Assembly: GCA_965215195.1 (NCBI GenBank)
Contig: CBDCDC010000002.1
Coordinates: forward strand, 1,856,001 to 1,920,000
DNA: 64,000 nt
Direction of reading: 5' to 3'
Origin: Candidatus Latescibacterota bacterium
GTDB lineage: Bacteria; Latescibacterota; UBA2968; UBA8231
The translations under genes were made by a program, and so were the position numbers. Below the pieces are notes generated by a model. The model saw nothing but the letters and a program-made list of their open reading frames with translations, was not told the origin of the DNA and did not search any database. This document shows positions 30,094 through 45,727 of this stretch, one piece after another; the first letter of the stretch is position 1, and each line of letters begins with the position of its first letter.

Positions 30094-33054
30094 ATGCTGT
30101 GTTTTCTAAAATGCCGCGTTGTCAAGTGCTGGGTGGTCTTATCCGCGCTGGTTTGCGCTGGCTTGTCCGCGCCGGCCGAGGCGCAGCGCCACCCCGAATC
30201 CGGCGGCCCGCTGCCCTATTACGACCCTACTCCCGGCACACCGCAAGATCCCCCGTGGAAAAAGCGCCCCCCCTTCCTGCGCGGTCCCCAAGACCGCTAT
30301 GACCGAGGGCTGGGGAGGACTTTTTTCAACGCCGCAGTCAGCGTCCCCTATCTCAACTACGCCGATGAAAAGTACATTGCGTACTACCGCGAAACGGTTG
30401 CTTGGGCCACCCCATCGGGCCGCTCGCCAAGGACCCGCAACGTGGGTTGGGACCGGATGGGCAACTACATGGGCGGGGGCTATCAGCGGGTCCTGACGAT
30501 AGAAGAGTCGCGCAGTGGCAACGACTTTAGTGGGTATAGCTATATCGACCACAAGTATCGGTCGTTCCGGATCGGCCACTATACGCACAAGGATTTGCAC
30601 TGGACTGCCACGTTGGGCAACTTGACCACAAGATCGGATGTGCGCACCATTTTCACGCCGCTCACGCTGGCCAACAGCAAGCTGAACGCGCTGCGCATGG
30701 ACATCAACTACAAGGAGCGCGACCGGGCAACTCTGCTCTACTCGCGCGGCGGCGACCACTCCGGGGCCCAGCTATTCTCCAAATGGGCGTTTGGCCAAGA
30801 AGGCGACGACGCTTGGGACAACTCACCGGTGCTGCTCTTTGGCGGCCACTATCAGCGCGAAGTAGGGAGCTTCGCCAGCGTTGGCGGGACGCTAATCAAC
30901 CAGATCATGGCTTCGCCGGCCCTGTCGCGCTCCAGCGCTTGGCGCGGCGATTTGCCCTATGAGATGCTCGGCCCCAAGACCATCCGCGTCTTCGTGGCCG
31001 ACGACTCGCCCGACGACGCACAGGCCAATGCTATTGTCTATGGCGTGGATATTGTCATAGAGGGTGCGCGCAGCACAGAGCCGGTGCGCCTGACCAGCCT
31101 CGACGACGACCCGGACTACGACCCAATCCTAGAAGCTGGGCCTCCCGAAGGCGGCACTGTCCGCTCCGGCGGCGAGCGCGAGGCCGAGGGCAAGGTGCCG
31201 GTGGTGTACACCTTTGTTATCCCACCGGACGTGACCGTGCGCTCGGTGCGCTTTGTCGCCGATGTGGCCGGCGATTACCGGGTCGGCGTCAGCCAGACCC
31301 ACGACTTCTTCAATATCAGCCGCCGGGGCGACGCGACGATTACTGAGGCGGCTTGGCCAGCTCCTATCGCCAGCGCCGGTGAGCGGGCCATCCGGCGTCC
31401 GTTCAAATGGTACACAGACGAGGATGAGGAACTCTACTACACCATCATCCGCGCCGATGGCAGCGACGGCAGTGGTGCCAACCGGCGGATGGTCTCCTTT
31501 GACTACGGCATTCCCACCGGGCAGAGTTTGGCCTCAATCAACTATCAGGTCGATTTGGTAGGGCTGGAAGTCAGCGGCGAGATGGCGCACAATCTGCAAA
31601 ACTTCATGTTCCCAGTCGGCAATAACGAGGGCGAGCGCAGCAGCGAGCGCGCCTTGGCGTGGTGGGTCAAGGGCGTCAAGGATCTGGCCGGTGGTCTAGC
31701 GCTGGGCGGCGAGATATACCGCATAGAGCCTGACTACGGCGGCGGCTACGATAGCTACCGCGGCGGCATGGCCTTCCACTACGATGGCCAGCCTGCTCCC
31801 GGCGAGAGAATCTCTACGGTCACTGAGGAGTTCCCCCTCCACGAGGACAACGACGATCACGACCGCTTCCCCGACAGCCACACCGAAGATACCGCCACTG
31901 CCGAGCCGCGTTTGCTTTATCCAGGCAATCCCAGTGCTCAAGTGTACCCCGGTCTCGACGAGAACGTCGATAACATCCCGGACATGGATCGCAACGAGAA
32001 CTTCATTGTCGATTGGGAAGAGGCGTTTCTAACCTACGATTCAGAGCCGCCCGAATTTGTCTATGGCATTGACTTCAACAACAACAACGTACCCGACTTC
32101 CGCGAAAACGACGATAAGCCGGACTACCCTTACCCACGCGACCAAAAGGGCCAGCACATCTTCCTCCGCTACGACCGCTTGGGGCGCTTGGGCAAGTTCA
32201 TCACCCTAGGCCGCTACGACAACAGCCAGATCGCCGGCCCGGGTAAGTCCGAGTCGCTGTACTTCCGCTACGCATACTCAGTGGAAAAGCGCGGCGTTGG
32301 CGCACTGAACATCAACTACGACGCCAAGCAGGTCAAAGACGACATCCCAGACCACACCTACGTGTACCAAGTGCCCATTGACGATATAGAGGTCATCAAC
32401 TGGTTTAACGAGCCGGACGGCCCGCCCGAGCAGGCGGGCTTCTGGCGGCCGGCGACGCCGGACGAGCTGTTGATGCGCGACAGCTTTGTGCATCTCCTCT
32501 TTTTCGACAGCACCTATCAGGGGTTCCGCGGCTTCAACATTGAAAACGGCTTTCTGTGGCAGCGCAACAGCCAAGCCGAACTTGAGCTCGCAGACGGCAG
32601 CGGGCTGTTGCAGCCCCAAGACGTGCGCTCGCGTTTTTCCATTGTCAACAAGATCGACTATACCCATAGCTGGGGTGCTTTCAGCGTCACGCCTAAGTTA
32701 AAGCATCGGACGATCGTTGAGCAGGTCGATAGCGAAGACGCGCCGCGGAAATCGTACAGCGACTTCATCCCCATCGTAATGGGGCAGTACAAGCTCACGC
32801 CCAAGACCAGCTTTCAGCTAGGCGTACAGGGGCTGCCCTTGCTGCCGTTTAAGCACTGGGATCGCGCCTTTGAGGACGGGACGTACAGCCAGACCGATTA
32901 TCTGGCCATGCTGCGCATCACCGCAGACTACTTTGGCATCCGCGACAATTCGATCTTCTTCGGCTACCAGCGCACGCGGCGGGACTTTAGCCATGCCGGG
33001 CGGCCCGACAGCAAGCAAGGCATCCTCTTCGTGGAACTGATATCCCCCTTCTAA
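30094..33054 (+). CDS. Large uncharacterised outer-membrane protein A with Asp/Asn-rich putative Ca-binding motifs
   Basis: Signal peptide; amphipathic beta-strand-like segments; DNDDHDRFPD, GLDENVDNIPD, GIDFNNNNVPD; C-terminal Phe; paralog of 37037-39964. Confidence 0.7.
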   Translation: MLCFLKCRVVKCWVVLSALVCAGLSAPAEAQRHPESGGPLPYYDPTPGTPQDPPWKKRPPFLRGPQDRYDRGLGRTFFNAAVSVPYLNYADEKYIAYYRETVAWATPSGRSPRTRNVGWDRMGNYMGGGYQRVLTIEESRSGNDFSGYSYIDHKYRSFRIGHYTHKDLHWTATLGNLTTRSDVRTIFTPLTLANSKLNALRMDINYKERDRATLLYSRGGDHSGAQLFSKWAFGQEGDDAWDNSPVLLFGGHYQREVGSFASVGGTLINQIMASPALSRSSAWRGDLPYEMLGPKTIRVFVADDSPDDAQANAIVYGVDIVIEGARSTEPVRLTSLDDDPDYDPILEAGPPEGGTVRSGGEREAEGKVPVVYTFVIPPDVTVRSVRFVADVAGDYRVGVSQTHDFFNISRRGDATITEAAWPAPIASAGERAIRRPFKWYTDEDEELYYTIIRADGSDGSGANRRMVSFDYGIPTGQSLASINYQVDLVGLEVSGEMAHNLQNFMFPVGNNEGERSSERALAWWVKGVKDLAGGLALGGEIYRIEPDYGGGYDSYRGGMAFHYDGQPAPGERISTVTEEFPLHEDNDDHDRFPDSHTEDTATAEPRLLYPGNPSAQVYPGLDENVDNIPDMDRNENFIVDWEEAFLTYDSEPPEFVYGIDFNNNNVPDFRENDDKPDYPYPRDQKGQHIFLRYDRLGRLGKFITLGRYDNSQIAGPGKSESLYFRYAYSVEKRGVGALNINYDAKQVKDDIPDHTYVYQVPIDDIEVINWFNEPDGPPEQAGFWRPATPDELLMRDSFVHLLFFDSTYQGFRGFNIENGFLWQRNSQAELELADGSGLLQPQDVRSRFSIVNKIDYTHSWGAFSVTPKLKHRTIVEQVDSEDAPRKSYSDFIPIVMGQYKLTPKTSFQLGVQGLPLLPFKHWDRAFEDGTYSQTDYLAMLRITADYFGIRDNSIFFGYQRTRRDFSHAGRPDSKQGILFVELISPF

Positions 33055-33062
33055 GGGTGCGA

Positions 33063-33836
33063 ATGCAGATGAGACCACTTGCAAAACACACTCACGTCCT
33101 CTTGTGCTTGGCGTTGGCCGCCGGGGGGTGCGCTACCCTCAGATCCCTCGAATCGCAGGCGCAGCAGGAGTACTTTATCGAGCTAGAGCCGGTCCTGGCC
33201 GCTGAAGATACCTATTACATTGATCCGATCGACAGCTCGGTCGTGTGGAGCGAGCAAGGGGTGCAAGTCAAGGTCAAGTTCTACGACGATGCCATGCTCG
33301 ACGCCGAATACGACACCCGCTTCACGCCCTATACGCTCACGGGAGTCGAAATCCCCGGTTTAGACTATACGCCGCCCCTGTGGACCGTTTTTGAAGTGAC
33401 AGTGATCAACCGCACCCGGGAGCGGGTGGAGTTAGATCCCACGCAGACCATTCTGCGCTTGGACGACGGCCGCCGACTGCTCTGCCGCCAAGGGGCGGGA
33501 AGTTGGTACGACAAGGACGAGTTCTTCGACTATTCCTATTTGAAGTGGGGAGGACAAGAAGGCAATGTGAAATACCATGCCAGCTTGGACCGCAACCCGA
33601 TCTGGGAGAAGAGCGAGTACCACCGGGAAAAGCCCGTGCGCAAAGGCTCGAGATACGTCGGCAAGTTGACCTTTCCACCGCTGCCGGCAGAGACTAGGGC
33701 GTTCACCCTCGAAGTAAACGACTTCATTCTGGCCTTTGATCGCTTTCAAGTAGGATACGGCAATCCGGTGGAATTTACCGACTTGAAATTCCGCTTCAAT
33801 GTCGATCACGGAGTGCGTTGGGTGGAGACTAAGTAA
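33063..33836 (+). CDS. Uncharacterised lipoprotein (paralog of 44871-45638)
   Basis: Lipobox AGGC; 'IDP.DSS', 'YTPP..TVF.V.VIN.T' shared with the paralog. Confidence 0.7.
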   Translation: MQMRPLAKHTHVLLCLALAAGGCATLRSLESQAQQEYFIELEPVLAAEDTYYIDPIDSSVVWSEQGVQVKVKFYDDAMLDAEYDTRFTPYTLTGVEIPGLDYTPPLWTVFEVTVINRTRERVELDPTQTILRLDDGRRLLCRQGAGSWYDKDEFFDYSYLKWGGQEGNVKYHASLDRNPIWEKSEYHREKPVRKGSRYVGKLTFPPLPAETRAFTLEVNDFILAFDRFQVGYGNPVEFTDLKFRFNVDHGVRWVETK

Positions 33837-34493
33837 ATGAAAAAGATGGTGACATATCTCGGGATGACGCTGCTTGTCGGCTCAACGGGTTGTGCCTTGA
33901 AATACGAGGCCCTCAAGGACACTAGCGTGCCCAACCCGCCGTCGATGCCGGTCAAAATATACGTCAAGGAATTCCCGGTCGAGAGCAAGGCCAACGTGGT
34001 CGATCCGCGGACCGCCAATTCGGCCGGTAGTCAGGGAACCCAGTACATTACTAACGCCCTCGCCAGCGAGGGAAATCGCTTGGTGCAGATTACTCGGCCT
34101 TCGCGCATCGAGGATTTGTCTGGGGCTTTGTTGCGCGAACTGCGCAAGGACAAGGTGCGGATCTTCACGCAGACGGATCGGGTTGAGGTGCTAGACGAAG
34201 ACAGCGTCCGACAAGTGAGCAATCCCTTTGCGCTGGTGTCAGCGGACTCAGAAGAGGCCGACTTGGAAATTAGCGGCACGGCTGTGATTACCAGTCAGCG
34301 GGTGCGCAAAGTATTCTCCCCGCAGACGCAAAGGGTGCAGGTTGAGGTCGCAGTCAGGGATCTCAAAACCGGCAAAGTGAGCAAGAAAAGCCCGGTCGAT
34401 GCCGGCGTTGTCATGACCTTCAACTCGCGGGAGTTGGAGGAAGCCCTCGCCATTGCCGTGGTGACCAGCCTGACGCAGAAACTGCTGTTCTGA
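33837..34493 (+). CDS. Uncharacterised lipoprotein
   Basis: Lipobox STGC; abuts both neighbours in the operon. Confidence 0.65.
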   Translation: MKKMVTYLGMTLLVGSTGCALKYEALKDTSVPNPPSMPVKIYVKEFPVESKANVVDPRTANSAGSQGTQYITNALASEGNRLVQITRPSRIEDLSGALLRELRKDKVRIFTQTDRVEVLDEDSVRQVSNPFALVSADSEEADLEISGTAVITSQRVRKVFSPQTQRVQVEVAVRDLKTGKVSKKSPVDAGVVMTFNSRELEEALAIAVVTSLTQKLLF

Positions 34494-34494
34494 A

Positions 34495-36141
34495 GTGCTG
34501 AGGCTGGGCGCACTCTTGCTCTTGCTCGAATTCAGTCCGTGCCGTGCTGAATTAAAGACTTGGGTAGTGGACGCGGTCGATACATTTGCCTTGGGAACGA
34601 CCCAAGGCGTACAGGTGCATCCCGATAGCCTCGTCATTTTGGCGCAATTAGACGAGGATGTAAACGTGGCCTTGGGACGACCAGTGATAGACGATTTTGA
34701 CAAGCCTGTGCCCCTGACTGACGGCGCGATTGACCTCGTGCGCAGCGAGTGGATCTCGGGCACCAATCACGTGTTCGACAAGCAGTTTACCGTCGATCTC
34801 GGCTTGGACCGGGCGATCAAGCGGGTGCGAGTGCTGGCCGGCGAGACGGCCCTGAACCAGCCCGAGTATTTCATGCGTGGGTACAGGCTCGAAACAGCCA
34901 CCCAAGCGGCACCGCAAGTCTGGCATCTGTTGGCGGAACAGCCGGACAATTTCGTCCTCAATGTAGATACGAGCGCAGATTCTACTTGGGCCGCGACCAA
35001 CGAGCGCGGCGCGGCGATCCCGCGCGAAGGTCGCTTCGTGCGGCTGACCCTGATCCGCCAAGACCGCAGCAACTGGGTCGCCATCGGGGAAATCGAGGTG
35101 TTCGGCGCGGGCTACGTTAGCGAAGGCTTCATAGAGGATAGCTTCGTCCCGCCGACTCCGGTCAACGTAGGGCAGATTCGTTGGCAAGCAGAGCGCCCGG
35201 AGCGCACGGGCATTGAGTTGCAGGTGCGCGGACCCACCGCGGAGCCTTGGCAAAGCCTTGCAGCGCACACGGACGAAGAATTTTTCTACAGCGGAGACGA
35301 GCCGGTCGCGCAGTTGGCATACCGGGCCCGCCTGACGAATTCGGCTCCCTTTGTCAGCCCGGCGCTCGAGCGCGTCGCCATGGACTACGATCCAGTCTTG
35401 GTCGCCCAGCAACTCGTGGCAGAGGTGGTCGCATCCGATTCGCTGCGCAAGGGCGAGGAAGCGACCCTGATTTACCGAGTGGAGATCGCGGCTGGCGTCG
35501 ATGATTACGGGGTCGATCTCTTGCGCGTACAAGGCCCCTTGCTCCGCGTAACCGCCGTGCGCGTCAATGGTCGAGAACTCGCGCCTACCGAGGGCTACAC
35601 TTGGGGCCCGACGCCGGATCGGGAGGGGATGGTAGTAGAGCTTGCCCCCGGCGAGCAAATCAACGCGCTGGCGACCGTCGAAATTGAAGGGTCGGCGCTC
35701 TTTGTGCGCGACAAGACCACTATGCATTTTGCGGCTGGCAACAAGGCCCAAGGCGACCGAGATGGGTACGTGAACTGGCAGCAGGGGCGAGAAATGTCGG
35801 GTGCCACTTGGACGGTACTGGCGGCGGGGACGCCGTTGCAGCTTTTGGGCGAAGTGCAGGTGCAGCCGCGCCCGTTCTCTCCGTTTGCGGACGAATATGC
35901 GCGCTTTGCCTTTGTCGTCGGCAATATCGAGGCGGGCCGGGAAGTCGTGCTAAAAATTTACAACCTGACCGGTCGGCCGATTCGCCAGTTGGCGCAGACC
36001 GGAAGTGCCCGCACCTATCAGTTCGAGTGGGACGGCCGCGATGGGAGCGGTCGCGTTGTCGAGCCGGGGCTCTATCTATACGAGGTTGGGATAGAAGCAA
36101 GCGGCAAGGCGCACCGAGGTACTTTTGTGGTGGCGTACTAG
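34495..36141 (+). CDS. Secreted protein with discoidin/F5-8-like domain and C-terminal FlgD-Ig / T9SS-CTD-like domain
   Basis: 'FTVDLG..RAIKRVRV', 'RFVRLT...IGEIEVFG'; tail 'PRPFSP...LKIYNLTGRPIRQL...WDGRDGSGRVVEPGLYLY...GTFVVAY'. Confidence 0.75.
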   Translation: MLRLGALLLLLEFSPCRAELKTWVVDAVDTFALGTTQGVQVHPDSLVILAQLDEDVNVALGRPVIDDFDKPVPLTDGAIDLVRSEWISGTNHVFDKQFTVDLGLDRAIKRVRVLAGETALNQPEYFMRGYRLETATQAAPQVWHLLAEQPDNFVLNVDTSADSTWAATNERGAAIPREGRFVRLTLIRQDRSNWVAIGEIEVFGAGYVSEGFIEDSFVPPTPVNVGQIRWQAERPERTGIELQVRGPTAEPWQSLAAHTDEEFFYSGDEPVAQLAYRARLTNSAPFVSPALERVAMDYDPVLVAQQLVAEVVASDSLRKGEEATLIYRVEIAAGVDDYGVDLLRVQGPLLRVTAVRVNGRELAPTEGYTWGPTPDREGMVVELAPGEQINALATVEIEGSALFVRDKTTMHFAAGNKAQGDRDGYVNWQQGREMSGATWTVLAAGTPLQLLGEVQVQPRPFSPFADEYARFAFVVGNIEAGREVVLKIYNLTGRPIRQLAQTGSARTYQFEWDGRDGSGRVVEPGLYLYEVGIEASGKAHRGTFVVAY

Positions 36142-36985
36142 CGTCCTATTGCTGGCCCTCGTCCCCCCGGTCGGCGCTGCTTTTGAATTTGCGGGACAGG
36201 GGGCCCAGAGCACGGCACTGGGCCGAGCTTTCGCCGCCCGCATTCAGACAGCTGAGGCCGTTTGGTACAATCCGGCTGGCAATGCCCAGCAGCAGAAGTG
36301 GCAGGCTGGCACGACCCACGCGTTGCTCTATCCCGGGTTGGACCAAAGCCCAGCCCTAAACGGCTTGTCAGTGGCCGGCCCCTTGCGGGGCGGCGGCTTC
36401 CAACTGGGCCTTTCGTTTTTAGGGGCCGATGGCTGGCGCGAAGAAGTGATTGCCTTGGGCTACGGGCGGCCGTTGCACGAGCGATTCGCCTTGGGCGGCG
36501 GCTGGCGCACCAGCGCTTGGCAAGCGGGCGATCTGTCGCACCGGGCTTGGCATTTCGATGTAGGGGCGACTTGGGAAGTGGGTTTCATACACCCGCGGGC
36601 GTACCTGCGATTGGCGTTGGTCGCCAAAGGCTTAAACGGGGCCAATATCGCAGCGGGCGGCCAAGCTACAGGCAAAGAAAAGCCAGCCGTGGTTGCGGCG
36701 GCCTTGCTCAACGTGGCGGGCCGGGAGGTCCTACTCGACATTGAGCGCCGCGAGGGGCGAACCGAGTTCAGAATGGGGTACGAGACGCGGACGGTGAGCC
36801 TCAACGGCGCTCGGTTCCGCATGGGAGGAGCTGCGGTTGGGTCGGGTTTTGACGATAGAGAGCTCAACGTGGGGCTGGGCCACAACTATAAGCAATGGCA
36901 TTTCGATTATGCGTATTCCTACCCGCTGCACCTGTCCGGCTATGGAGGTGTGCATCGGTTCAGCGTTGGTTATCGCCAGCGCTGA
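36125..36985 (+). CDS. PorV/PorP/PorQ-like outer-membrane beta-barrel protein
   Basis: 'AFEFAGQGAQSTALGRAFAA', 'AVWYNPAG', 'FDVGA', 'HFDYAYSY..LSGYGGVHRFSVGY'. Confidence 0.65.
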   Translation: MWWRTSVLLLALVPPVGAAFEFAGQGAQSTALGRAFAARIQTAEAVWYNPAGNAQQQKWQAGTTHALLYPGLDQSPALNGLSVAGPLRGGGFQLGLSFLGADGWREEVIALGYGRPLHERFALGGGWRTSAWQAGDLSHRAWHFDVGATWEVGFIHPRAYLRLALVAKGLNGANIAAGGQATGKEKPAVVAAALLNVAGREVLLDIERREGRTEFRMGYETRTVSLNGARFRMGGAAVGSGFDDRELNVGLGHNYKQWHFDYAYSYPLHLSGYGGVHRFSVGYRQR

Positions 36986-37036
36986 GTTGGAATGCGACTG
37001 AAGACCGGATCTCTACACTGAATGAGGATAGCTGCC

Positions 37037-39964
37037 ATGAGTAGTAATGCGAGAAAAAGCCTGGTGAGGAGCGCGCTACTAGCGTTTGTTGGGTTGGGAA
37101 TGCTGGGTGCCGAAGCCGCAGCGCAGACCTTTCTGCGCAACCGGGATTTCCTCAACCTCGGCCATCCCGAACCGTATTTGAACTACGGGCGCAAGGAGTA
37201 CGATCCCTATCCTTCGGTGATCAACGCACGCAATCGCTACGACCGCTTAGGCAATTACCTGTCGCGCGGATTCAATGTCTTCACTTGGGAATTTTCCCGC
37301 CCCGGGGAAAGTAATATCAACACCCGTACGGCCCAGTACTTGGGATGGTTCGCCAACCTGGTGATGCTCAACGACTCGTACAAGGGTTGGAACTACCGCG
37401 TGACCTTGGGCGAGGACATCCGCGCCAAGTTTTCAGATCTGACCTTTAGCGACCCGCGCTTCTTTGGCATCCTGCTCGACGGCGCTTCCTCGGACAACAG
37501 GTTCACCCTGATGCTGAGCCAAGGCGGCGACCTGTTAAACGCCGCCAAGTTTTCGACCTTCAAAGCGACTCGGGAGACCTCACCGGTGTTGATCTTTGGC
37601 GGCCACTGGGAGACCAAGCTGGGCAATGTGCTGCGCATGGGTGCCACGTACTTCAACCAGCACATGGCCAATACGGCCGACGAGAACGGCTCCTTTCTCA
37701 AGGGCGATACCCCGTATAGCATGCTGCCGCCCTCTTTTATCGAAGTCATTGTCGAAGACGATTCGCCCGACGATATAGGCCGGGCGGCCACCGTCTATGA
37801 CGTGGATGTGGTGATCATCGGCGAGTCGCAGGGGCAGCGGGTGCGCCTGACCAGCATTGAAGGCGATCCCGAGTACGACTCGAGCCTAAAGATGATCGAT
37901 CCGGTTGGCGGGGCCGAGGGCGGGCTGACCATAGCCGGCGGCGACCAAGTGATCTTCCGCTTCCAAATGCCGCAATTCAACCTCCCGGATGCCGCGGAGT
38001 ACTCGGCCGATCCCGACGACTTTGTTCCGGGGCTGACGATGAGATCCGTGCGCTTCTTGGCCGATGTCGAGGGCGACTATCGCATTTTAGTGCGCCAACA
38101 GCACTTGTTCTTCGACCAGCGAGCCCACCAGAGAAACGTGGACAAAGTGGCCGAAGGGGACGACAGATACGTTCCGGGCGGCAGGAGCTACGTCAATCCT
38201 TTTACCGGCCTGAAAGGCGACGACGCAACCAAACCGCTCGAAGAGGTGCTGGCAGAAAATCCAGAAGCCTTTAATCAGTGGCCGGTGGTGCCGGAGCCGG
38301 GCACTACTCAGGCGTCGCCGTTTTTGCAGTACAAATGGGATCTGCTCGATCCGACCCGGGTAGGTTATACGGTCTTGCGCTCCGACGGCAGCGACTCGGG
38401 CCGCAAGGTAGTCGAGTTCGACTACGGCATCCCCACCGGTCAGGCCCTCTACGGGTTGGACTGGGACCTAAGCCTCAAAGGGCTAAAGGTAAAGGGCGAG
38501 CTGGTCGCCAATCCCCAGTACTTCCTCTTCCCGGTGGGCAGCAATGCCGGCAAGCGCTTTGACAAGCAGACCCTCGGCTATTTCCTCACGGCCCAAAAGG
38601 AAGTAGGCCCGCTCGAGATCGGGGGCGAAATTTTCAACCTAGATCCGGACTACAGCGGCAACTACGACAGCGACCGCGGCGGCGTGGCCTTCTTTAGCGA
38701 CGATTGCTTCGTGTGTCCACAGATGCAGGAAATGTCCGTGATGACCGACAATGACGACAACGACCAGTGGCCAGACGAGATGCTCAACGAGCTGCCCAGT
38801 GCCGAGAAGTCGGATTCGGGCATTTTTCCCGGCTTGGACGAAAACAACGACCTCATCCCGGACAGTGACCAGAATTTCAACGGCATTCCCGACTGGACTG
38901 AGCCAATCCTCTTTTACGACGCCGATCCGCCGGATTTCATCTACGGCATCGACTTCAACAACAACGGCGTAGTCGATTACCGCGAAAACGACGCCCTGCC
39001 CGACTATCCCTACCCGCGGGACCGCCGGGGGGGCCACTTCGTGGCCACCAAGAAAGGCTTGGGGCGCTGGGGCAAATGGGCCTCTGTAGGCTACTACACC
39101 ATAGAGGAGCCGGCCGGCGGCGGCGAGGCCAAGGCCCTGTACGCCCGCTATGAGCACAACTTCACCTCGCCCTATCTGGGGAAAATTCGCATCAACGAGG
39201 ACATCAAGCAGGTCCAAGACAACATCCGCGACGACGTGTACGTCTGGGAAGACGTGGGTTTTGCCCAGCGGATACCCAGCCCCTTCCCGCACTTGAAAGG
39301 TCCGATGATTGAGGCGCGGGATCTCAATTCGCAGATTTTTCCGCCAGATGTCGATCCCCTGAACATGCGCAATAGCTTGGTCAATACCTTGTTCATCAGC
39401 TCGACCTTTAGGCAGTTTTCCAACCTCAACGTCATCAACAACGTCCAGTGGATTCGCAACAGCCAAGCCGAGGACGAGTTCGACGACGGCACCCAACAGG
39501 CAGCCGGCGTGCTCTCGACCGTTACGGTGGTCAACCGGCTCGACTACACGATTAACGCCGGCAACCTGAACATCCGCCCGATGTTCAAGCACCTGTTCTT
39601 GCGCAAGCATTCAAGCGTACTCGAAGATGCGGGGGACGAAGACAACGGCATCATTGATTCGTTCTCGATTTACGCCCCGATAGTCAGGACCCGCTTTGAC
39701 CTGACGGCCAAGTCCAATCTGCAACTGGGCTTCCAAGGCTTCCCTTTCTGGCGACACACGAGTTTGGACCGCAAGGATGAGCACAACGACTTTAAGGAGT
39801 GGACGCTGGTGCTGATGATGAGCAACCGCTCGGATCACTACGGCTACAACCTCGCTTCCCAGTTCGGCTTTATCCGAACCAGCCGGGAGTACGACGATGC
39901 TACTCGCGCTTCGGATAGCTTCGACAACTCGCGCCTCTTCTTTGATATTGTGGCCGGGTTCTAA
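37037..39964 (+). CDS. Large uncharacterised outer-membrane protein B with Asp/Asn-rich putative Ca-binding motifs
   Basis: Signal peptide; DNDDNDQWPD, GLDENNDLIPDSDQNFNG, GIDFNNNGVVD; C-terminal 'DIVAGF'; collinear with 30094-33054. Confidence 0.7.
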   Translation: MSSNARKSLVRSALLAFVGLGMLGAEAAAQTFLRNRDFLNLGHPEPYLNYGRKEYDPYPSVINARNRYDRLGNYLSRGFNVFTWEFSRPGESNINTRTAQYLGWFANLVMLNDSYKGWNYRVTLGEDIRAKFSDLTFSDPRFFGILLDGASSDNRFTLMLSQGGDLLNAAKFSTFKATRETSPVLIFGGHWETKLGNVLRMGATYFNQHMANTADENGSFLKGDTPYSMLPPSFIEVIVEDDSPDDIGRAATVYDVDVVIIGESQGQRVRLTSIEGDPEYDSSLKMIDPVGGAEGGLTIAGGDQVIFRFQMPQFNLPDAAEYSADPDDFVPGLTMRSVRFLADVEGDYRILVRQQHLFFDQRAHQRNVDKVAEGDDRYVPGGRSYVNPFTGLKGDDATKPLEEVLAENPEAFNQWPVVPEPGTTQASPFLQYKWDLLDPTRVGYTVLRSDGSDSGRKVVEFDYGIPTGQALYGLDWDLSLKGLKVKGELVANPQYFLFPVGSNAGKRFDKQTLGYFLTAQKEVGPLEIGGEIFNLDPDYSGNYDSDRGGVAFFSDDCFVCPQMQEMSVMTDNDDNDQWPDEMLNELPSAEKSDSGIFPGLDENNDLIPDSDQNFNGIPDWTEPILFYDADPPDFIYGIDFNNNGVVDYRENDALPDYPYPRDRRGGHFVATKKGLGRWGKWASVGYYTIEEPAGGGEAKALYARYEHNFTSPYLGKIRINEDIKQVQDNIRDDVYVWEDVGFAQRIPSPFPHLKGPMIEARDLNSQIFPPDVDPLNMRNSLVNTLFISSTFRQFSNLNVINNVQWIRNSQAEDEFDDGTQQAAGVLSTVTVVNRLDYTINAGNLNIRPMFKHLFLRKHSSVLEDAGDEDNGIIDSFSIYAPIVRTRFDLTAKSNLQLGFQGFPFWRHTSLDRKDEHNDFKEWTLVLMMSNRSDHYGYNLASQFGFIRTSREYDDATRASDSFDNSRLFFDIVAGF

Positions 39965-39983
39965 AGCTTAGGAGATCGACGCC

Positions 39984-42900
39984 ATGATTCTGGTAAATCT
40001 GCTGCTAATTGCAGCGGTCGGCGCGGCCGCCAGCCTGAGTACGCGCTTCTTCTCGCCGGTGGAATTGCAAGACCGCTTTGAGGAGGGGCAGAAGCTCTAT
40101 GCGCTAGGGGCCTACGACAAAGCCATTGAGCGCTATGAGGTCATTCTCTCCACCGAAAGCAACGCCATGATCAACGTGGAGGATGTAACCGTAGCGGTTG
40201 ACGAGTTCATCCTGCCGGTGCGCGTGGGTGCCACCTACCAGCTAGGCAATACCTACAACAAGCTCGGTCTGGAAAAATTGCAGCGCTCGCAGTTTTTGCG
40301 CTCGGAGAAAAAGGAGGCCGCGGCCGACGCTCGCTACGACGAGGCCCTGCAAGACCTCAACAAGAGCCGCGATCACTTCCGCACCCTGGCCGCAGACGAG
40401 CGCGTCGATAACCGCACCCGGGTGATGGCGCAGTACCAGATGATCCAGACGAGTTACCAGCTCAAGGAGTACGAGCAGGTCATTGAGGAAGGGGACGAGC
40501 TGCTGCACAGCTTCCCCCACAGCCTCTATGAAGCGTCCGTTCACTACGACCGCGCGTGGTCCTATTTTGAATTGGAGCGCTACGCGGAGGCCATCGCCAG
40601 CTTCAAGCAGGTCTTGGTCTTGGCCCCCAGAGGCTCCAACGCCGACCGCTCGCTCTTCCAGATCGCCGAGAGCTACGACAAGCTAGGGCAGTACGAAGAT
40701 GCGCTGGAGTACCTCGACCGCCTCGTCGCCCGCTACGACTTCGCGCAGATGACCGAGGAAGAAATCATCGAAATGACCACCCTCAAGCTCAAGGGTTTGG
40801 TCAAGGAGACCGCGCGCGAGCTAGTTGCCAAGGCCCACCTGAAAAAGGGCGATATCTACGCCCGCAACGGCGAGATCGAAAAGGCCCTCGCCGCCTATGC
40901 CGTGCTTCCGGCCGAATACGCGGCCGAGCCGGTCTTGGTGCAAAATAGCTATATCCGCACGGCCGAGTTGGTGCAGAAGGAGCAGGGCACGACAGCGGCC
41001 ATTGCCGCGTACAAGGACGCCATCGAAAAGGTTGAGGACAAGCTCTTTCAGGCCCGCACCCAGCTAACGGTCGCCCTGATGCTTTTCGACCAGGACGAGT
41101 ACCTCAAGTCGGCCCAGGAATACGAGATCTACCTCAACGCCTACGGCGACGTGGCCCAGCGCATTGGCTTCGACCGCTACAAGGTTCTCTTTCGCATCGC
41201 CCAGTGCCACCAAGAATACGGGCGGCAGATCCGCAGCGAGGACCCGGCTGGAGCGGACGCGGAAATCGCCGAGGCCCGCAAAAGCTACGACCAGCTCCTG
41301 AGCCAGCGCGCGGACAATTCCCTGATCCCGGACGTGCTTTTTAACGCCGGCTTTGCCAACCAGCTCCTAGAGAACGACCAAGCAGCTCAGCCCCTGTACC
41401 AGCGGTTAGTCGACGAGTATCCAGCGCATCCAGCGGCCCCCAACGGCCTTTTGCAGTTGGCCCGCATCGCCTATGCCGCATCCGAGCTCAAACGGGCCGA
41501 GGCGATTTATACGTCCTTCCTCGACCGCTTCCCGGATTCGGCACTGCGCAATACGACGCGGATGGAGCTGGGCCTCACCTACAAGCACCTCGAGGATACA
41601 GATAGCGCCATCGCCGCCTATGAGACGGTGGAAGCGGATTGGGACAAGTGGCCTACCGTGCAGGTCGAGTTGGCCGAGCTGTACATGGGCAAGCAAGAGT
41701 ACGCCAAGGCGCGTCAGGCCCTGTCTCGCGCCTTGGGCCGAGCCGGCGACGACACCCTAAGAGGCCAGATGCACTACACCTTGGCCCGGGTGCATTTTGC
41801 AGAGGACAATTTCGCCAGTGCGATCCGCGCTTGGGGCGAGGCCATTGCCCTGAATCCGCCCGCGCACCTCCTGCAAAACTCGCTGCTGGCGCGCGGCGGT
41901 GCGTATTACGAGGTCGCCAAACAGCAAGACGCGGTCGGCGACACGGCCGAGGCCCGCACGAGCTATGAGGCATCGCTGGAGGATATGAAGGCCCTGCTCG
42001 AAGGCGATCCCGCGCCCCAGATCAAGGACAGCGCCTTCCGCACGCTGGGGGCGGGCATGATCCGCTTGGGGCGGCAAGAAGAGGCGGCGCGGTACTACCA
42101 AGAGCTCATTGCCGCGTCGGCCGACCTCCAAGAGCAGGCCACCTTTAGCATGCTGCTGACCGAGCTGTACTACGATCAGCAGGATTTCGTCCAAGCCGAA
42201 AAATTCGCCCGCCAGCTCCTCGACATGCAGTTTGAAGACGACAATCAAGCTGGTTACTACCGCAAAGAACGCGCCTATTCCATCATCGGCAACGCGCTGC
42301 TACAGCAGCAGCAGTACGAGGAAGCCGCTCGCGTCTTTGCCCGAGGTCTCAAGCGCTATCCGAATTCGGGCGAGAGCGGCAACTTGGCCTTCTCCAAGGG
42401 TTTTGCCGAAATCAGCTACGGCGACTACGCCACCGCTGCCGAGAGCTTCCGGGCCTTTGTCCGCAAATATCCGCGCAATGCCAACCGCATTCACGGCCAG
42501 TACTATCTGGCCCACAGCCTCCAGGCCCTGACCCAGTTTGAGGAGGCTGCGGCCGCTTTTGCCGCGCTCGTCGAGCGCCATCCCCAGTCCCAATACGAGG
42601 AAGAAGCGCTTTTTCTCATTGGCGAAAACTACTACAACGAGCAGGCCTTTGCCGAAGCCGCGACCGCCTACCAAGTGCTCTTGGCCAAATATGCCCAAGG
42701 CCAATACGGCGGGTCGGCCCAGTACGCGTTGGCTTGGTCCTTCGTCGAACAAGAACAGATGGAGCAAGCAGTAGGCGCGATGCAAAACCTAGTGGCCAAT
42801 TACCCCGACAGCGAGTTCGCCCCCAAGGCGCAGTTTACCATTGGCGACTACTACTACAATATCCAGTCTTACGACGAGGCCATGGCCGCCTACAAGCAAG

Positions 42901-43256
42901 TAATCGAGCTATATCCCGGCTCTGAGGAGACGCCGAGGGCCATAGGTCTAGTGGAAGAGCTAAGCGAGATCCAAGCGAGCTTTAGCTACAACGAGGCCAT
43001 GAAGCTGTTTGAGGCCAAGGACTACGACCGGGCCGTGCCGGCCCTACAGGGGATTATCCGCGATTATCCCGGCACCCATACCGAGTTGGCCGCGTACTGC
43101 AACTTGGGGCTGGTCTATGAAATCACGCGCCAATGGTCGCAGGCCGTGGAAAACTATCAGGTAGTGGAAGAAAAGGGTGGGGACAAGGCGGAAAACGCCG
43201 ACGTGGTCAGTTTTGCCAAGCTGCACCGGGCGTGGATCGTCGAAAACCGGCTCTAG
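39984..43256 (+). CDS. Large exported tetratricopeptide-repeat protein (CpoB/BamD-like TPRs)
   Basis: N-terminal hydrophobic signal; many repeats of the type 'A...Y..L...YP.S....AQF.IG..YY'. Confidence 0.9.
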   Translation: MILVNLLLIAAVGAAASLSTRFFSPVELQDRFEEGQKLYALGAYDKAIERYEVILSTESNAMINVEDVTVAVDEFILPVRVGATYQLGNTYNKLGLEKLQRSQFLRSEKKEAAADARYDEALQDLNKSRDHFRTLAADERVDNRTRVMAQYQMIQTSYQLKEYEQVIEEGDELLHSFPHSLYEASVHYDRAWSYFELERYAEAIASFKQVLVLAPRGSNADRSLFQIAESYDKLGQYEDALEYLDRLVARYDFAQMTEEEIIEMTTLKLKGLVKETARELVAKAHLKKGDIYARNGEIEKALAAYAVLPAEYAAEPVLVQNSYIRTAELVQKEQGTTAAIAAYKDAIEKVEDKLFQARTQLTVALMLFDQDEYLKSAQEYEIYLNAYGDVAQRIGFDRYKVLFRIAQCHQEYGRQIRSEDPAGADAEIAEARKSYDQLLSQRADNSLIPDVLFNAGFANQLLENDQAAQPLYQRLVDEYPAHPAAPNGLLQLARIAYAASELKRAEAIYTSFLDRFPDSALRNTTRMELGLTYKHLEDTDSAIAAYETVEADWDKWPTVQVELAELYMGKQEYAKARQALSRALGRAGDDTLRGQMHYTLARVHFAEDNFASAIRAWGEAIALNPPAHLLQNSLLARGGAYYEVAKQQDAVGDTAEARTSYEASLEDMKALLEGDPAPQIKDSAFRTLGAGMIRLGRQEEAARYYQELIAASADLQEQATFSMLLTELYYDQQDFVQAEKFARQLLDMQFEDDNQAGYYRKERAYSIIGNALLQQQQYEEAARVFARGLKRYPNSGESGNLAFSKGFAEISYGDYATAAESFRAFVRKYPRNANRIHGQYYLAHSLQALTQFEEAAAAFAALVERHPQSQYEEEALFLIGENYYNEQAFAEAATAYQVLLAKYAQGQYGGSAQYALAWSFVEQEQMEQAVGAMQNLVANYPDSEFAPKAQFTIGDYYYNIQSYDEAMAAYKQVIELYPGSEETPRAIGLVEELSEIQASFSYNEAMKLFEAKDYDRAVPALQGIIRDYPGTHTELAAYCNLGLVYEITRQWSQAVENYQVVEEKGGDKAENADVVSFAKLHRAWIVENRL

Positions 43257-43303
43257 CGAGCTTTCAACGCAACGCAAAGTAGGACACAATACGGGAGGTT
43301 GTA

Positions 43304-43978
43304 ATGGAGCAGAATTTTCTAGTCGACCAGTTTTTCAAGGGCGGGCCGATGATGTGGCCCATGTTGCTCTGCTTGCTGATCGCCCTAGCCATCATCATAG
43401 AACGACTGTGGCGTCTGCTGATGGTCCCGGGCGAACAGGAGGCCGAACAGTATCTCAACAAGGCCGAGGAAGTGCTCAAAAATCAAGGCGAAGGCGGGGC
43501 CGTCGAGCTATTCCGACAGGGCAGCGGCGTACTCAACTTCATCTTCGCCGCCTTGGTGAAGCGCTACGACACCTTAGTGCTGGAAAATCGCACGGACCTA
43601 GAGGACATGCGTCAGGAGTTGATCTTGGCCACGGAGGAGGCCGGCGAGATGTACTTAGGCCGCCTGCTCAACGCGCTCGGCACCATTGGCGTCCTCTCCC
43701 CGCTGATGGGGCTGTTGGGCACGATCATGGGTATGATTCACGCCTTTGACGCGATTGCCCGCGCCGGGGCCGGCGATCCAGCGGCCGTGGCCAGCGGCAT
43801 TTCCGAGGCCCTGATTACGACGGCCAGTGGCCTCATTGTCGCCATTCCGACCATCGTCTTCCACCGCTACCTCTCCGGCCGGGCGGAAAAGGTCTTCAAG
43901 AGCGTGGAGCTGTACTGCCACGCCTTCGCCAATACCCTGCTGGTGCGCTTCCAAGCCGGCCAGCAGGAAGCCAGCTAG
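43304..43978 (+). CDS. exbB: MotA/TolQ/ExbB proton channel protein
   Basis: 'GGPMMWP', 'SPLMGLLGTIMGMIHAF', 'GISEALITTASGL.VAIP'. Confidence 0.92.
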   Translation: MEQNFLVDQFFKGGPMMWPMLLCLLIALAIIIERLWRLLMVPGEQEAEQYLNKAEEVLKNQGEGGAVELFRQGSGVLNFIFAALVKRYDTLVLENRTDLEDMRQELILATEEAGEMYLGRLLNALGTIGVLSPLMGLLGTIMGMIHAFDAIARAGAGDPAAVASGISEALITTASGLIVAIPTIVFHRYLSGRAEKVFKSVELYCHAFANTLLVRFQAGQQEAS

Positions 43979-43994
43979 GCAGAGAGACGCTGCA

Positions 43995-44414
43995 ATGCGG
44001 CAGAGACGAAAGAGCGGATTCGGCAAAAGCGCCTTCAAGGCCTCGGAGAATCCAGATCTGACTCCGCTGATCAACTGCATGTTCTTGCTGTTGGTTTTCT
44101 TTATGGTGGCGACCACTTTCGTCAACCCCAAGGGTCTGAGCGTAGATCTGCCGGGCGGCGAAGGCGAGTCGCGCGCGACCAAGGACATGAACATCGTGAT
44201 CGACCCAGACCAGACGATCCAAGTCAACGGCGAGGTCACGGACAAGGCGCGATTGGCCGAGAAGATCCGTCAGGTCATAGCAGCCGACAACACCAAGAAC
44301 GTGATCTTGGAGTCCGCGCGTTCCGTGCCTCACGCCTATGTGGTGCAGGTGATGGACATCGCCCGCGGCGAGGGCATTGAGGCCATTGCTTTCGCCAAGA
44401 GTGGAGAAGGATGA
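43995..44414 (+). CDS. exbD: ExbD/TolR family protein with Asn in place of the conserved TM Asp
   Basis: 'PDLTPLINCMFLLLVFFMVATTF...VDLP'; 'VVQVMDIAR'. Confidence 0.88.
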   Translation: MRQRRKSGFGKSAFKASENPDLTPLINCMFLLLVFFMVATTFVNPKGLSVDLPGGEGESRATKDMNIVIDPDQTIQVNGEVTDKARLAEKIRQVIAADNTKNVILESARSVPHAYVVQVMDIARGEGIEAIAFAKSGEG

Positions 44415-44839
44415 GCGGCATGGCTAAACGGAGGCAGTCGCTGGCCGAAAAAGCCGGCGAATTTGAACTGAACCTGACGCCGATGATAGACGCAGTGTTC
44501 CTGCTACTGATCTTCTTTATGACCACCACGGTCTTCGTCAAGGCCACTCAGGTCAAGATCGAGTTGCCCGACTCGGTCCAATACGACCAGCTAAAAGCAG
44601 AGAAGAAGCTGAATCTGCGCATCTCGAGCGAGGGCCAGCTCGAGATCAACGGGCAGCTCGTGGCCATGGGGCAGCTAGCCGGCTGGCTAGAGCGCGAGAA
44701 GATCCGCACCGGCTCTTCAACGCTGATTATCACCGCAGACGCCAATGCCGCGCACGGCCATATCATCGACGCGATGGAAACGGCCACCATGGCCGGCGTC
44801 GAACAGATCGACATTGAAACCGAGGAACCAACCAATTGA
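44411..44839 (+). CDS. exbD: ExbD/TolR family protein
   Basis: 'LNLTPMIDAVFLLLIFFMTTT', 'IELP', 'ITADANAAHG.IIDAM'. Confidence 0.9.
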   Translation: MSGMAKRRQSLAEKAGEFELNLTPMIDAVFLLLIFFMTTTVFVKATQVKIELPDSVQYDQLKAEKKLNLRISSEGQLEINGQLVAMGQLAGWLEREKIRTGSSTLIITADANAAHGHIIDAMETATMAGVEQIDIETEEPTN

Positions 44840-44870
44840 CGGTAGCTAGCAAAAAGGGAGTTGCAATTTT

Positions 44871-45638
44871 ATGAGAGCGAGGTATGTGGCACTCCTCGGC
44901 TTAGTGGCGCTCGGGCTGGTCTGGAGCTGCGGGGGGCTGGTGCCGCCCCAACTCGTGTACGACCTGCACGTGATGCCCGTCCTGCCCGAGGGCCGCGGCG
45001 ATTACACCATCGACCCGGACGACAGCTCGATGGTCTTTAGCAAAGAGGGGCTTTTGATCCGGGTGCGGCACCTGAGCGACCCCGAGCTCAACGAGCGCTT
45101 CCCACCTCTGTACGACGGTCGCCACGTCAATCCCTACACCCGGGACGACATCGATCCCGAAAAGGGCTATACCCCCCCGCAGTTCACCGTCTTTGACGTC
45201 GAGGTCATAAACAAGACCTATGCGAAGATCGAATTCGATCCGGCCAAGGCGACCATGGAATCGGGCGGCGAGACCTATCGCTACTACGATCCCGGGCGCG
45301 AGGGGGCGGTCGTGTTGGGGGGCAACAGCTTCACCAAGTACTACAAAATGGAGCTGGGCACTTCGGGTAACGAGCGCGAAATCAACTTGGAGCGCATGGG
45401 CATTATCTACAAGACGGTCTTTCACCGCCATCGACCGATCTTCCGCGATAGCAGCCAAAAGGGCATGTTGGTCTTTGATCCGTTGCTGCCGGAAAACGAC
45501 GAGTTGCTGCTCACCTTCCGCGAATTCGTGCTTTCGTTTGACGCCAGCGGCAATCCAGAAGAGACCATTGACGTCGAGTTCCGCTTTGCGGTGAACCAAG
45601 GAACGAGGGAAAAGGCCAGAGCGGACGGGGCGGGTTGA
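44871..45638 (+). CDS. Uncharacterised lipoprotein (paralog of 33063-33836)
   Basis: Lipobox VWSC; shared motifs with the 33063 protein. Confidence 0.7.
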   Translation: MRARYVALLGLVALGLVWSCGGLVPPQLVYDLHVMPVLPEGRGDYTIDPDDSSMVFSKEGLLIRVRHLSDPELNERFPPLYDGRHVNPYTRDDIDPEKGYTPPQFTVFDVEVINKTYAKIEFDPAKATMESGGETYRYYDPGREGAVVLGGNSFTKYYKMELGTSGNEREINLERMGIIYKTVFHRHRPIFRDSSQKGMLVFDPLLPENDELLLTFREFVLSFDASGNPEETIDVEFRFAVNQGTREKARADGAG

Positions 45639-45693
45639 GTCCCCGGCACTGCTTCTGCATCTGGATAGCGCGTATGGCAGGATGGCTCATTGC

Positions 45694-45727
45694 GAGGAGC
45701 TGGACCTTCCGTCTAGCTCCTCTTTTT
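45694..45727 (+). terminator. Rho-independent terminator-like hairpin ending immediately before the next ATG
   Basis: GAGGAGCTGGAC-CTTCC-GTCTAGCTCCTC-TTTTT. Confidence 0.7.

Follow-up and report, generated by a model that had tools for sequence, protein, structure and literature searches.

What does an ExbB/ExbD motor drive when its genes lie beside two large paralogous proteins of no known family, and no TonB, TolA or receptor is recognisable around it? The question is raised by region 30094-45727 of a 64,000-nt stretch of DNA (the whole stretch that was analysed, here called the window) from contig CBDCDC010000002.1 of a Candidatus Latescibacterota bacterium. To our knowledge, the proton-driven 5:2 motors (Ton, Tol, Agl and GldLM) are the sole known energy route to the outer membrane, and each new output module of such a motor shows further uses of that energy. 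A first-pass annotation of the window had described the region as an envelope operon with the layout of the Myxococcus Agl-Glt machine, and had proposed that it encodes an undescribed uptake or secretion machine driven by the proton-motive force (PMF). The follow-up reported here confirmed the observation and partly supported the interpretation: the region carries one member of a diversified family of cassettes, which we read, tentatively and with less than even confidence, as a Ton/Tol/Agl-Glt-class force-transducing machine acting on a new outer membrane complex, most likely for energised uptake. No description of this cassette was found in the literature.

As annotated, the region consists of 11 co-directional, tightly spaced open reading frames (ORFs), all on the + strand with intergenic distances of -17 to +47 nt. 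In the lines below, OMP stands for a large putative outer membrane protein and TPR for tetratricopeptide repeat; the cassette types that are mentioned are set out further on.

30094-33054, + strand: OMP-A, 986 aa, secreted, beta-rich, new family
33057-33836, + strand: LipX-1 (gene 2), lipoprotein, new family
33837-34493, + strand: Lip3 (gene 3), lipoprotein of no known family, in type-I cassettes only
34495-36141, + strand: gene 4, discoidin (F5/8 type C)-like, with a C-terminal FlgD-Ig/type IX secretion system (T9SS)-type sorting-like domain
36125-36985, + strand: gene 5, putative small barrel, distantly of the PorV/PorQ family
37022-39964, + strand: OMP-B (gene 6), 980 aa, paralogue of OMP-A, always immediately 5' of the TPR gene
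38729-39016, + strand: Asp/Asn-rich segment within OMP-B (residues ~570-665)
39984-43256, + strand: TPR protein (gene 7), 1090 aa, with an uncharged N-terminal hydrophobic helix
43304-43978, + strand: ExbB/TolQ-like stator (gene 8), MotA_ExbB 101.3 bits
43995-44414, + strand: ExbD1, TolR/ExbD-like (gene 9), Pfam ExbD 91.4 bits; the start is 43995, rather than the upstream GTG of the listed ORF
44411-44839, + strand: ExbD2, TolR/ExbD-like (gene 10), Pfam ExbD 103.1 bits
44871-45638, + strand: LipX-2 (gene 11), lipoprotein, conserved partner of the TPR gene

OMP-A and OMP-B are indeed paralogues (35% identity, E 5e-167) without known relatives: neither matches a Pfam or NCBIfam model, and when all PDB sequences were searched with profiles from OMP alignments of 33 and 94 sequences, chance-level matches alone came up, and no receptor. 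Members of the family have a signal peptide and no transmembrane (TM) helix, and their beta-rich composition resembles that of the window's BamA-like and OMP_b-brl controls and is unlike that of the helical controls, from which we infer that they are located in the outer membrane and are barrels. A home-made amphipathic-strand counter was discarded, since an all-helical TPR control scored like the OMPs. Throughout the family, N-terminal extensions that start right after the signal peptidase site are strongly conserved, e.g., the ~45-aa, proline-rich extension of OMP-A, which is conserved in 8/8 of the orthologues shown. Asp and Asn together make up 24-32% of residues 551-650, and the OMP-B residues D576, N577, D578, D579, D581, D585 and, further on, D661 are invariant in 33 sequences; this Asp/Asn-rich segment probably forms calcium-binding loops. 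In a FastTree phylogeny of 67 members, OMP-A and OMP-B form separate clades (100% each) that are sisters (99%), and the three OMP positions of cassette types III and V each form a clade of their own with 99-100% local support. That position-specific clades were kept over such a depth suggests that the OMPs are non-redundant subunits of a hetero-oligomer.

The most familiar explanation for such proteins would be ordinary TonB-dependent uptake, in which the ~980-aa proteins are diverged receptors of the plug plus 22-strand type and a tonB gene lies elsewhere, as ExbB/ExbD beside large outer membrane proteins is the usual Ton arrangement. Latescibacteria, which are described as degraders of glycoproteins and polysaccharides, are reported from single-cell genomes to encode TonB, ExbB, ExbD and Plug-domain proteins elsewhere (PMC4454575), and a nearest named Atlas cluster of the OMP family, with a score of 0.89, bears the label 'TonB-dependent receptor-like beta-barrel'. 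However, Plug (PF07715), TonB_dep_Rec and CarboxypepD_reg had no match at E<=0.1 in 50 OMPs (the two of the window and 48 relatives), no Plug or receptor match appeared even at E<=1 in a set of six proteins that included OMP-A and OMP-B, the PDB profiles likewise gave no receptor, and neither the near-invariant Asp/Asn-rich insert nor the conserved N-terminal extensions are like a plug. The annotated lack of TonB/TolA, receptor, SusD, TolB and Pal also held over the 16 + 37 window proteins searched with Pfam and NCBIfam, in which no model for Plug, TonB_dep_Rec, TonB_C, SusD, TolA, TolB or OmpA/Pal was matched. An ordinary receptor system is, in our estimation, very improbable at this locus.

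Whether the 11 genes belong together was addressed by comparison. A genome scan with the OMP family confirmed 589 coding stretches, from which 61 loci (L numbers below) were taken, and the window proteins were compared with them by tblastn. The window order is kept in 27 related loci (type I), down to ~50-60% protein identity, and the same genomes contain four further arrangements of paralogous genes. Neither of the outcomes that the first-pass annotation had named as refuting it was encountered, as the order holds and no Plug or receptor signature appeared. In the lines that follow, CTD denotes the C-terminal-domain-type protein (gene 4 in the window) and PPIase a peptidyl-prolyl isomerase.

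Type I: CBM9-like, OMP-A, LipX, Lip3, CTD protein, PorV-like, OMP-B, TPR, ExbB, ExbD, ExbD, LipX, PPIase, OPT-like permease, (FGE-sulfatase protein)
Type II: DUF4159, CTD, OMP, TPR, LipX
Type III: (DUF6785) PPIase, three OMPs, TPR, LipX, CBM9, DUF4159 (DUF6785)
Type IV: DUF4159, CTD, OMP, OMP, TPR, ExbB, ExbD, ExbD, LipX, OMP
Type V: divergent ExbB/ExbD/ExbD, CTD(s), OMPs, TPR, DUF4159, long LipX, OMP

Several types can share one chromosome: OZ244561.1 has types I, II and III (loci L003, L042 and L046) and OZ244619.1 has types IV and V. Across all loci, a full-length TPR gene lies directly 3' of an OMP gene in 43/48 cases, and LipX is encoded within 3.5 kb 3' of the TPR gene in 36/37 loci with that much sequence visible, which defines an invariant core of one to three large OMPs, a 1040-1090-aa TPR protein and LipX. 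The sole exception to the TPR-LipX adjacency is L028 (type II), where a 5.4-kb block (15700-20900) with genes for an ABC ATPase, an extracytoplasmic function (ECF) sigma factor and two ABC-2 permeases separates the two. The motor genes, which had been annotated as a defining part, are instead a frequent but dispensable add-on: they occur beside the cassette in three layouts (types I, IV and V), and lie between the TPR and LipX genes in 18/20 type-I loci in which that stretch is visible, being absent from L009 and L010. In L034 (type I; 16300-18171), a 1.2-kb gap separates the ExbB and ExbD genes.

The cassette family has so far been seen only in Latescibacterota-like genomes. A word-indexed search found 86 relatives of OMP-B, all of them 'hypothetical', and those that are named come from metagenome-assembled genomes (MAGs) of Latescibacterota or Handelsmanbacteria, or from MAGs labelled Gemmatimonadota; the OMP-family profile matched 1042 clusters (50% identity) at E<=1e-3 and 338 at E<=1e-30. 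The OMP tree intersperses its Latescibacterota rows, at short distances, with L010, L013, L014, L031, L037 and other loci whose MAGs bear the label Gemmatimonadota, Planctomycetota, 'Gemmatimonas phototrophica' or Armatimonadota. Such labels probably reflect binning or naming, rather than transfer across phyla.

The annotation of one TolQ-like and two TolR-like subunits proved sound, as ExbB and both ExbD proteins are above the Pfam cut-offs, with NCBIfam equivalogs below cut-off (the best match of ExbB is TolQ, at 87.6 bits). ExbD1 and ExbD2 share only ~28-30% identity, and one of their differences falls on a residue of known importance, i.e., the Asp at the Asp23 column of TolR, which binds a proton. 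At that column of the E. coli protein ExbD1 has Asn27 (44073-44075) and ExbD2 has Asp27 (44489-44491); the Asn of ExbD1 is present in the window and in 19/19 type-I relatives listed, in which ExbD2 keeps its Asp, and in types IV and V both ExbD copies have Asp (for the proton-binding Asp of MotB, ExbD and TolR, see PMC12204202). A conserved pair of one inactive and one active subunit implies that ExbD1 and ExbD2 would work as an obligate heterodimer. The TPR identity of gene 7 is equally secure, with matches to 20 TPR-type Pfam families at E<=0.01 and eight CpoB/YbgF-like stretches (NCBIfam). It has one hydrophobic segment, at residues 1-19, in an N-terminal style common to all cassette types. 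It was rejected as a PorW/SprE protein (113 bits vs a cut-off of 250, and no lipobox), and no Glt model was among its NCBIfam matches; in size it is similar to GltD/GltC/GltE-type proteins.

These matches, together with the few that the OMPs produced, bear on a second explanation, in which the cassette exports a polymer through a TPR protein and a barrel porin, as in AlgK/AlgE, PelB, PgaA or BcsC, or else forms an envelope tether plus porin of the Tol-Pal or SlpA kind. The best NCBIfam matches of the motor and TPR protein are TolQ, TolR and the eight CpoB/YbgF-like stretches, and the sole recurring match of the OMP family is to Pfam SlpA_C, the Deinococcus S-layer barrel (short, sub-threshold, in 7/50 members, best E 2e-7); PelB_C was matched by one member (E 0.034), and DUF6029, discussed in print as a Wzi-like candidate polysaccharide porin (PMC9603273), is a nearest named Atlas cluster, with a score of 0.89 that counts as a lead only. 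All of these matches are, however, below curated cut-offs or the Atlas lead threshold, no glycosyltransferase, synthase, Wza/OPX, TolA, TolB or Pal/OmpA_C was found in the window cluster with Pfam or NCBIfam, several diversified copies per genome would be unusual for an envelope-integrity system, and the permease and lectin-like genes would go unexplained. Polymer export or tethering is accordingly regarded as improbable, if a little less so than a diverged receptor.

How force might reach the outer membrane without a recognisable TonB in the window brought attention to the lipoproteins. LipX-1 and LipX-2 are paralogues (34% identity, E 3e-32), a point absent from the first-pass annotation, and the family is here named LipX. 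Its lipobox Cys is invariant in 24/24 aligned members, it has no Pfam match even at E<=10 and none in NCBIfam, its PDB profile search gave chance-level matches only, and hhalign found no relation between it and the OMP family. The candidacy of LipX as a TonB, from its place at the 'TonB position', was rejected for the window because a TonB-like domain is lacking there and because LipX is encoded in motor-less cassettes as well.

Relatives of the window offer other candidates. DUF4159 proteins, found in all five cassette types, have a TM helix at the N-terminus together with a conserved basic/proline motif and a globular DUF4159 domain that matches PDB 4i66, a structure of unassigned function. 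Ser-x3-His is present at the E. coli TolA positions in 6/13 DUF4159 proteins, the His only in 4/13 and neither in 3/13, and those with the TolA-like helix are better candidates for the transducer than the TPR protein is. A model of a LipX-2 homologue (57% identical; Atlas predicted TM-score, pTM, 0.78) matched a 487-aa Atlas cluster at TM 0.75, and 87% of that cluster's members carry DUF4159; the similarity, together with the 4-nt overlap of the DUF4159 and LipX genes in type V, points to DUF4159 protein and LipX as a functional pair. The likeness to Agl-Glt that had been pointed out at the start also gained a link here, in that the C-terminal domain of the paralogous long LipX of type V matches NCBIfam NF033768, the AgmX/PglI (GltJ/GltG) C-terminal domain, at 61 bits over a cut-off of 40. 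The same domain has weak matches to GltG, GltJ and tonB_Cterm, four of its five weak PDB matches are TonB C-terminal domains, and hhalign placed it, with low probability, on E. coli TonB residues 172-218. A hidden Markov model (HMM) of the domain found it solely in the eight type-V loci that hold the gene, with no match in the window or in types I-IV.

The smaller envelope proteins have a different set of affinities. The lipobox Cys of Lip3 is invariant (8/8), and the protein has no relative in Pfam, NCBIfam or the PDB, where profile matches were at chance level; its C-terminus ends in a conserved Leu/Thr-Leu-Phe. The annotated 'CTD' nature of gene 4 stands as far as FlgD_ig is concerned (27.9 bits, barely above the cut-off of 27, with PDB FlgD 3osv at E 6e-4), and falls short for CHU_C (17.6 bits vs 27); F5_F8_type_C is below its cut-off in gene 4 itself (17.7 bits) and reaches 35-43 bits in the six gene-4 paralogues scanned (L040, L046, L049 and L057). 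Similarly, the 'PorV/PorP-like' label of gene 5 is backed by NCBIfam PorV_fam (E 9e-11), which is matched by 12/13 orthologues, although the 41.9 bits are well under the cut-off of 90 and the PDB profile search found no PorV, only chance-level matches.

These genes bear on a third explanation, namely that a machine of the same class has its output at the surface, and that export, unmasking, anchoring or movement of the discoidin-like CTD protein, in the manner of Glt/Nfs or the T9SS, serves adhesion, gliding or coat assembly. On this view the OMPs would serve as platform or translocon, with the PorV-like barrel as carrier and the TPR protein as a SprE/GltD-like scaffold. The parts match those of Agl-Glt, with a TolQ-like and two TolR-like subunits, a ~1100-aa TPR protein, two to three paralogous barrels, lipoproteins and a surface binder (PMC3169522, PMC11761067), and the GltG/GltJ-type domain of type-V LipX adds to the match. 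A PMF motor is likewise required by the extended translocon of the T9SS, in which a large barrel is combined with PorV, a PPIase and a TPR protein (PMC10994853). Gene 5 is PorV-family-like in nearly all of its orthologues, in types II, IV and V the CTD-type gene lies immediately 5' of a gene for an OMP, and the cassettes are without catabolic enzymes. Yet type III has no CTD protein at all and the PorV-like gene was found in type I only, there is no NCBIfam match to SprA, GldKLMN, GltA/B/H or GltD, the TPR protein is under the PorW/SprE cut-off and without a lipobox, and a surface apparatus has no use for an OPT-superfamily permease, whose linkage nevertheless persists through two cassette types. 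A surface machine is the chief rival of the uptake reading and a real possibility, though on balance an unlikely one.

The permease just mentioned is one of several neighbouring genes that were drawn into the analysis, and these are given here with the sites at the boundaries.

28313-28490, - strand: DUF4159 gene fragments, a remnant only
28977-29935, + strand: gene for a CBM9-like secreted protein, frameshifted (ORFs 28977-29432 and 29411-29935)
29960-30000, + strand: hairpin and T-run, putative terminator of the CBM9 gene, 18-pair stem
30005-30034: promoter-like site, after the left hairpin
45694-45722, + strand: hairpin and T-run, putative terminator or attenuator between LipX-2 and the isomerase gene, 12 pairs
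45728-47383, + strand: SurA/PrsA-like double-parvulin lipoprotein (PPIase), Rotamase_2 81.9 and Rotamase 48 bits
47387-49366, + strand: divergent OPT-superfamily permease (gene 13)
49288-50208, + strand: lipoprotein with an FGE-sulfatase domain (gene 14), FGE-sulfatase 180.7 bits

The unit had been annotated as ending at 45727, which is not borne out, as the isomerase and the OPT-family permease follow wherever sequence is visible: the isomerase gene is 3' of LipX-2 in 19/19 type-I loci with sequence beyond it, and the permease is listed in 13 type-I loci, with a partial copy at the end of L012. Homologues of gene 13 carry the NCBI name 'peptide transporter', and two of them pass Pfam OPT (cut-off 25.8 bits), P0341, which is 63% identical to gene 13, with 28.7 bits over nearly the whole model and P0339 with 26.5 bits. 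The OPT-like family is also related to the DUF6785/6784 proteins (hhalign, 77.8% probability, E 1.9e-5), and in type III (L041, L042, L043 and L045) it is a DUF6785/6784 permease that accompanies a paralogous SurA-like isomerase, on sides that vary. That paralogous cassettes keep paralogous permease/isomerase pairs in changing arrangements argues for a functional link between these pairs and the cassettes. At 53671-55602, 4 kb downstream, the window encodes another OPT-related permease, with DUF6785 and DUF6784. Gene 14 is syntenic in nine close relatives; it was rejected as a GldK (83.7 vs 350 bits).

The terminators that were said to flank the 11 genes were both found, and are the strongest terminator-like hairpins of the region, although the region's 22 terminator-like sites are no excess over shuffles (19.7 +/- 4.8). 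With differing stem sequences, the hairpin and T-run keep their position in 17/20 type-I relatives on the left and in 11/11 on the right. The right boundary is nevertheless soft, because the T-run there reaches right up to the ATG at 45728 with which the next gene starts; given this contact with the isomerase start codon and the conservation of the hairpin, attenuation or read-through would fit better than a separate promoter. An Rfam scan of the whole window gave no matches, and hence no riboswitch clue.

To the left, the CBM9-like gene is the conserved 5' neighbour in type-I loci. It is a single ~318-aa ORF in 6/6 relatives checked and in two frames in the window, either through a sequencing error or as a real pseudogene, and an intact orthologue (L001:1948-2901) passes Pfam CBM9_1 (38.6 vs 23.4 bits). 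The discoidin-like and CBM9-like modules together suggest a glycosylated ligand. Beyond this gene, homology to type-I relatives stops near 28852, and the divergent operon that lies upstream in relatives (341-aa protein, DUF4159, HEAT and FG-GAP) is missing from the window; what is left of DUF4159 are fragments in two frames with stops, with 84-90% DNA identity to type-II DUF4159 genes; by tblastn, they match a DUF4159 protein of type II over 46 aa (56% identity, E 3e-9). Directly left of the cassette, 20384-27415 looks like an inserted restriction-modification island, with a lower G+C content (0.47 at 20-22 kb), two N6/N4 DNA methylases, a Bpu10I-type restriction enzyme, a uracil-DNA glycosylase (UDG) fragment and a DnaB helicase gene. 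Elsewhere in the window, 9240-13076 encodes a 924-aa protein in which PD40 (TolB-like) beta-propeller repeats are fused to a barrel of the Omp85 type and, after it, a BamB-like PQQ-propeller protein, and 56258-61006, close to the second OPT-related permease, encodes a protein of 1582 aa that combines PA, Peptidase_M28 and FtsX-like permease domains.

It is mainly because the permease/isomerase pairs stay linked that import is favoured among the possible outputs, and an energised uptake machine could be pictured as follows. ExbB5 with an ExbD1/ExbD2 heterodimer would be the inner-membrane stator, and the ~1090-aa TPR protein a periplasmic pillar, as GltD is modelled in Agl-Glt. Force would pass to a heteromeric OMP-A/OMP-B barrel complex via a transducer encoded outside the locus, possibly a TonB elsewhere in the genome; in relatives this could be the membrane-anchored DUF4159 protein with its TolA-like Ser-x3-His helix, acting with LipX, which in type V would contribute its GltG/GltJ-type TonB-C-terminal-like domain. 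The N-terminal extensions of the OMPs may be the handles that get pulled. The machine would use this energy to capture and import an oligomer, perhaps a peptide or glycopeptide, to which the discoidin-like surface protein, held by the PorV-like barrel, and the CBM9-like protein would bind; the OMPs would let the oligomer pass, to be held by the SurA-like protein and then brought into the cell by the OPT-type permease.

A number of points weigh against this picture, and are the reason for holding it tentatively. Its outer membrane channel depends on the presumed barrel fold of the OMPs, of which just 33/94 have a C-terminal aromatic residue, a feature that was not used as evidence. As its N-terminal helix lacks a positive n-region, the TPR protein is of uncertain topology. 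The motor is missing from 2/20 orthologous loci and from types II and III, the window has no TonB-like domain and only a broken remnant of DUF4159, and Ser-x3-His is absent from the DUF4159 proteins of type V and from one of the two type-I proteins examined. No glycoside hydrolase, peptidase or regulator occurs inside any of the five cassette types, unlike in known nutrient-uptake loci. The window copy of the OPT-like permease has no Pfam match, and a conserved hairpin lies between it and the 11 genes. Lastly, in having a giant TPR scaffold, a PorV-family barrel, a CTD-type protein and an isomerase, the cassette resembles machines of export or of the surface (the T9SS extended translocon and Agl-Glt) and not the known importers.

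A bolder form of the uptake reading can be put forward as a speculation, and we think it rather unlikely. It would hold that Latescibacterota have a TonB-independent outer membrane transport of their own, in which heteromeric channels from a new family of ~900-1000-aa proteins are opened by an ExbB-ExbD1/ExbD2 motor and feed OPT-type permeases. The transducers would be the giant TPR pillar, LipX and those DUF4159 proteins that have a TM anchor and a TolA-like helix, instead of TonB, and the system would functionally replace SusCD/TonB-dependent utilisation loci, with at least five cassette types per genome.

Whatever its output, the cassette joins a motor to at least three families (the large OMPs, LipX and Lip3) without a Pfam or NCBIfam model or a sequence relative of solved structure. 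The phylum that carries it, with more than one diversified copy to a genome, is uncultured, widespread and one of polymer degraders. As an importer, it would be a second, independent solution to energised uptake across the outer membrane; as a surface machine, it would take the principle of Glt and the T9SS into a new phylum, and realise it with new parts. The Asp-to-Asn change in ExbD1 may in either case provide a natural example of an obligate heterodimeric stator plug.

How, then, does the cassette compare with the machines that are known? It works like one of the Ton/Tol/Glt class but belongs to no described family, because its membership in each known system fails on at least one defining feature. 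With Tol-Pal it shares its best NCBIfam matches (TolQ, TolR and a CpoB/YbgF-type TPR) and an outer membrane lipoprotein as a constant member, but TolA, TolB and Pal/OmpA_C are not among its parts, its equivalog scores are all under cut-off and it is multi-copy. With TonB-dependent and SusCD loci it shares ExbB/ExbD beside large outer membrane proteins, adjacent lipoproteins, carbohydrate-binding-like proteins, diversified copies per genome and a linked inner-membrane permease; unlike them, it has no Plug or receptor signature, SusD, cis TonB, enzymes or regulators, and its giant TPR protein is obligatory. The extended translocon of the T9SS, with SprA, PorV, PPI, SprE, PorD and SkpA, releases its cargo in a PMF-dependent manner and is driven by GldLM (PMC10994853). 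Its candidate counterparts here are a large outer membrane protein with a conserved N-terminus, a PorV-family-like barrel, a CTD-type protein, a TPR protein, a PPIase and a PMF motor, whereas the window proteins match no SprA/Sov, GldK/L/M/N, PorU/Z or Skp model, the motor is of the ExbB/ExbD type, the TPR protein is no lipoprotein, and type III does without a CTD protein or a PorV-like gene.

Two sets of motor clusters resemble the cassette in gene order. In Fibrobacter succinogenes, FSU_2396-2403, which is counted with the Agl-Glt core complex of non-gliding bacteria, encodes OmpA, TPR, TPR, ExbB, ExbD, ExbD and TonB and is induced on cellulose (PMC6851124). The vWA-type force-transducer clusters (PMC12204202) have the order TPR, tolQ-like and heterologous tolR pair, which is that of genes 7-10, and no canonical TonB or TolA, and the cassette's relatives share with them a TM-anchored Ser-x3-His helix with a linker and a non-TonB globular domain. 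That globular domain is DUF4159 here, with no annotated vWA, and the window has no SHLS-TM + vWA protein; the gene after the motor encodes the LipX lipoprotein, not a transducer, and large outer membrane proteins are not part of the published description of the vWA-type clusters, in so far as it was available to us.

The closest parts list is that of Agl-Glt, together with its core complex (aglRQS with gltC, D, E and G) in non-gliding bacteria. Differences are plain enough: the barrels here are of ~870-1000 aa vs ~210-275 aa for GltA/B/H, the window has neither a GltG/GltJ-like TM protein nor a TonB-like domain, no cytoplasmic GltI-like protein was seen, the cassette comes with an OPT-type permease and a SurA-like isomerase, and no Glt model is matched by the TPR protein. 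In Agl-Glt, the TPR protein GltD (~1200 aa) is modelled as a pillar that is bound by the TonB-CTD-like domains of GltG and GltJ (PMC11761067); three barrels have their N-termini ordered by a TPR protein and are capped by a lipoprotein, and there is a surface adhesin (PMC3169522; PMC11761067). Similar elements recur in the cassettes, i.e., one TolQ-like and two different TolR-like subunits, a TPR protein of ~1100-1200 aa, several paralogous, presumed outer membrane barrels, lipoproteins, a protein for binding at the surface, more than one paralogous cluster in a genome and, in type-V cassettes only, a C-terminal domain of the very type that GltG and GltJ possess.

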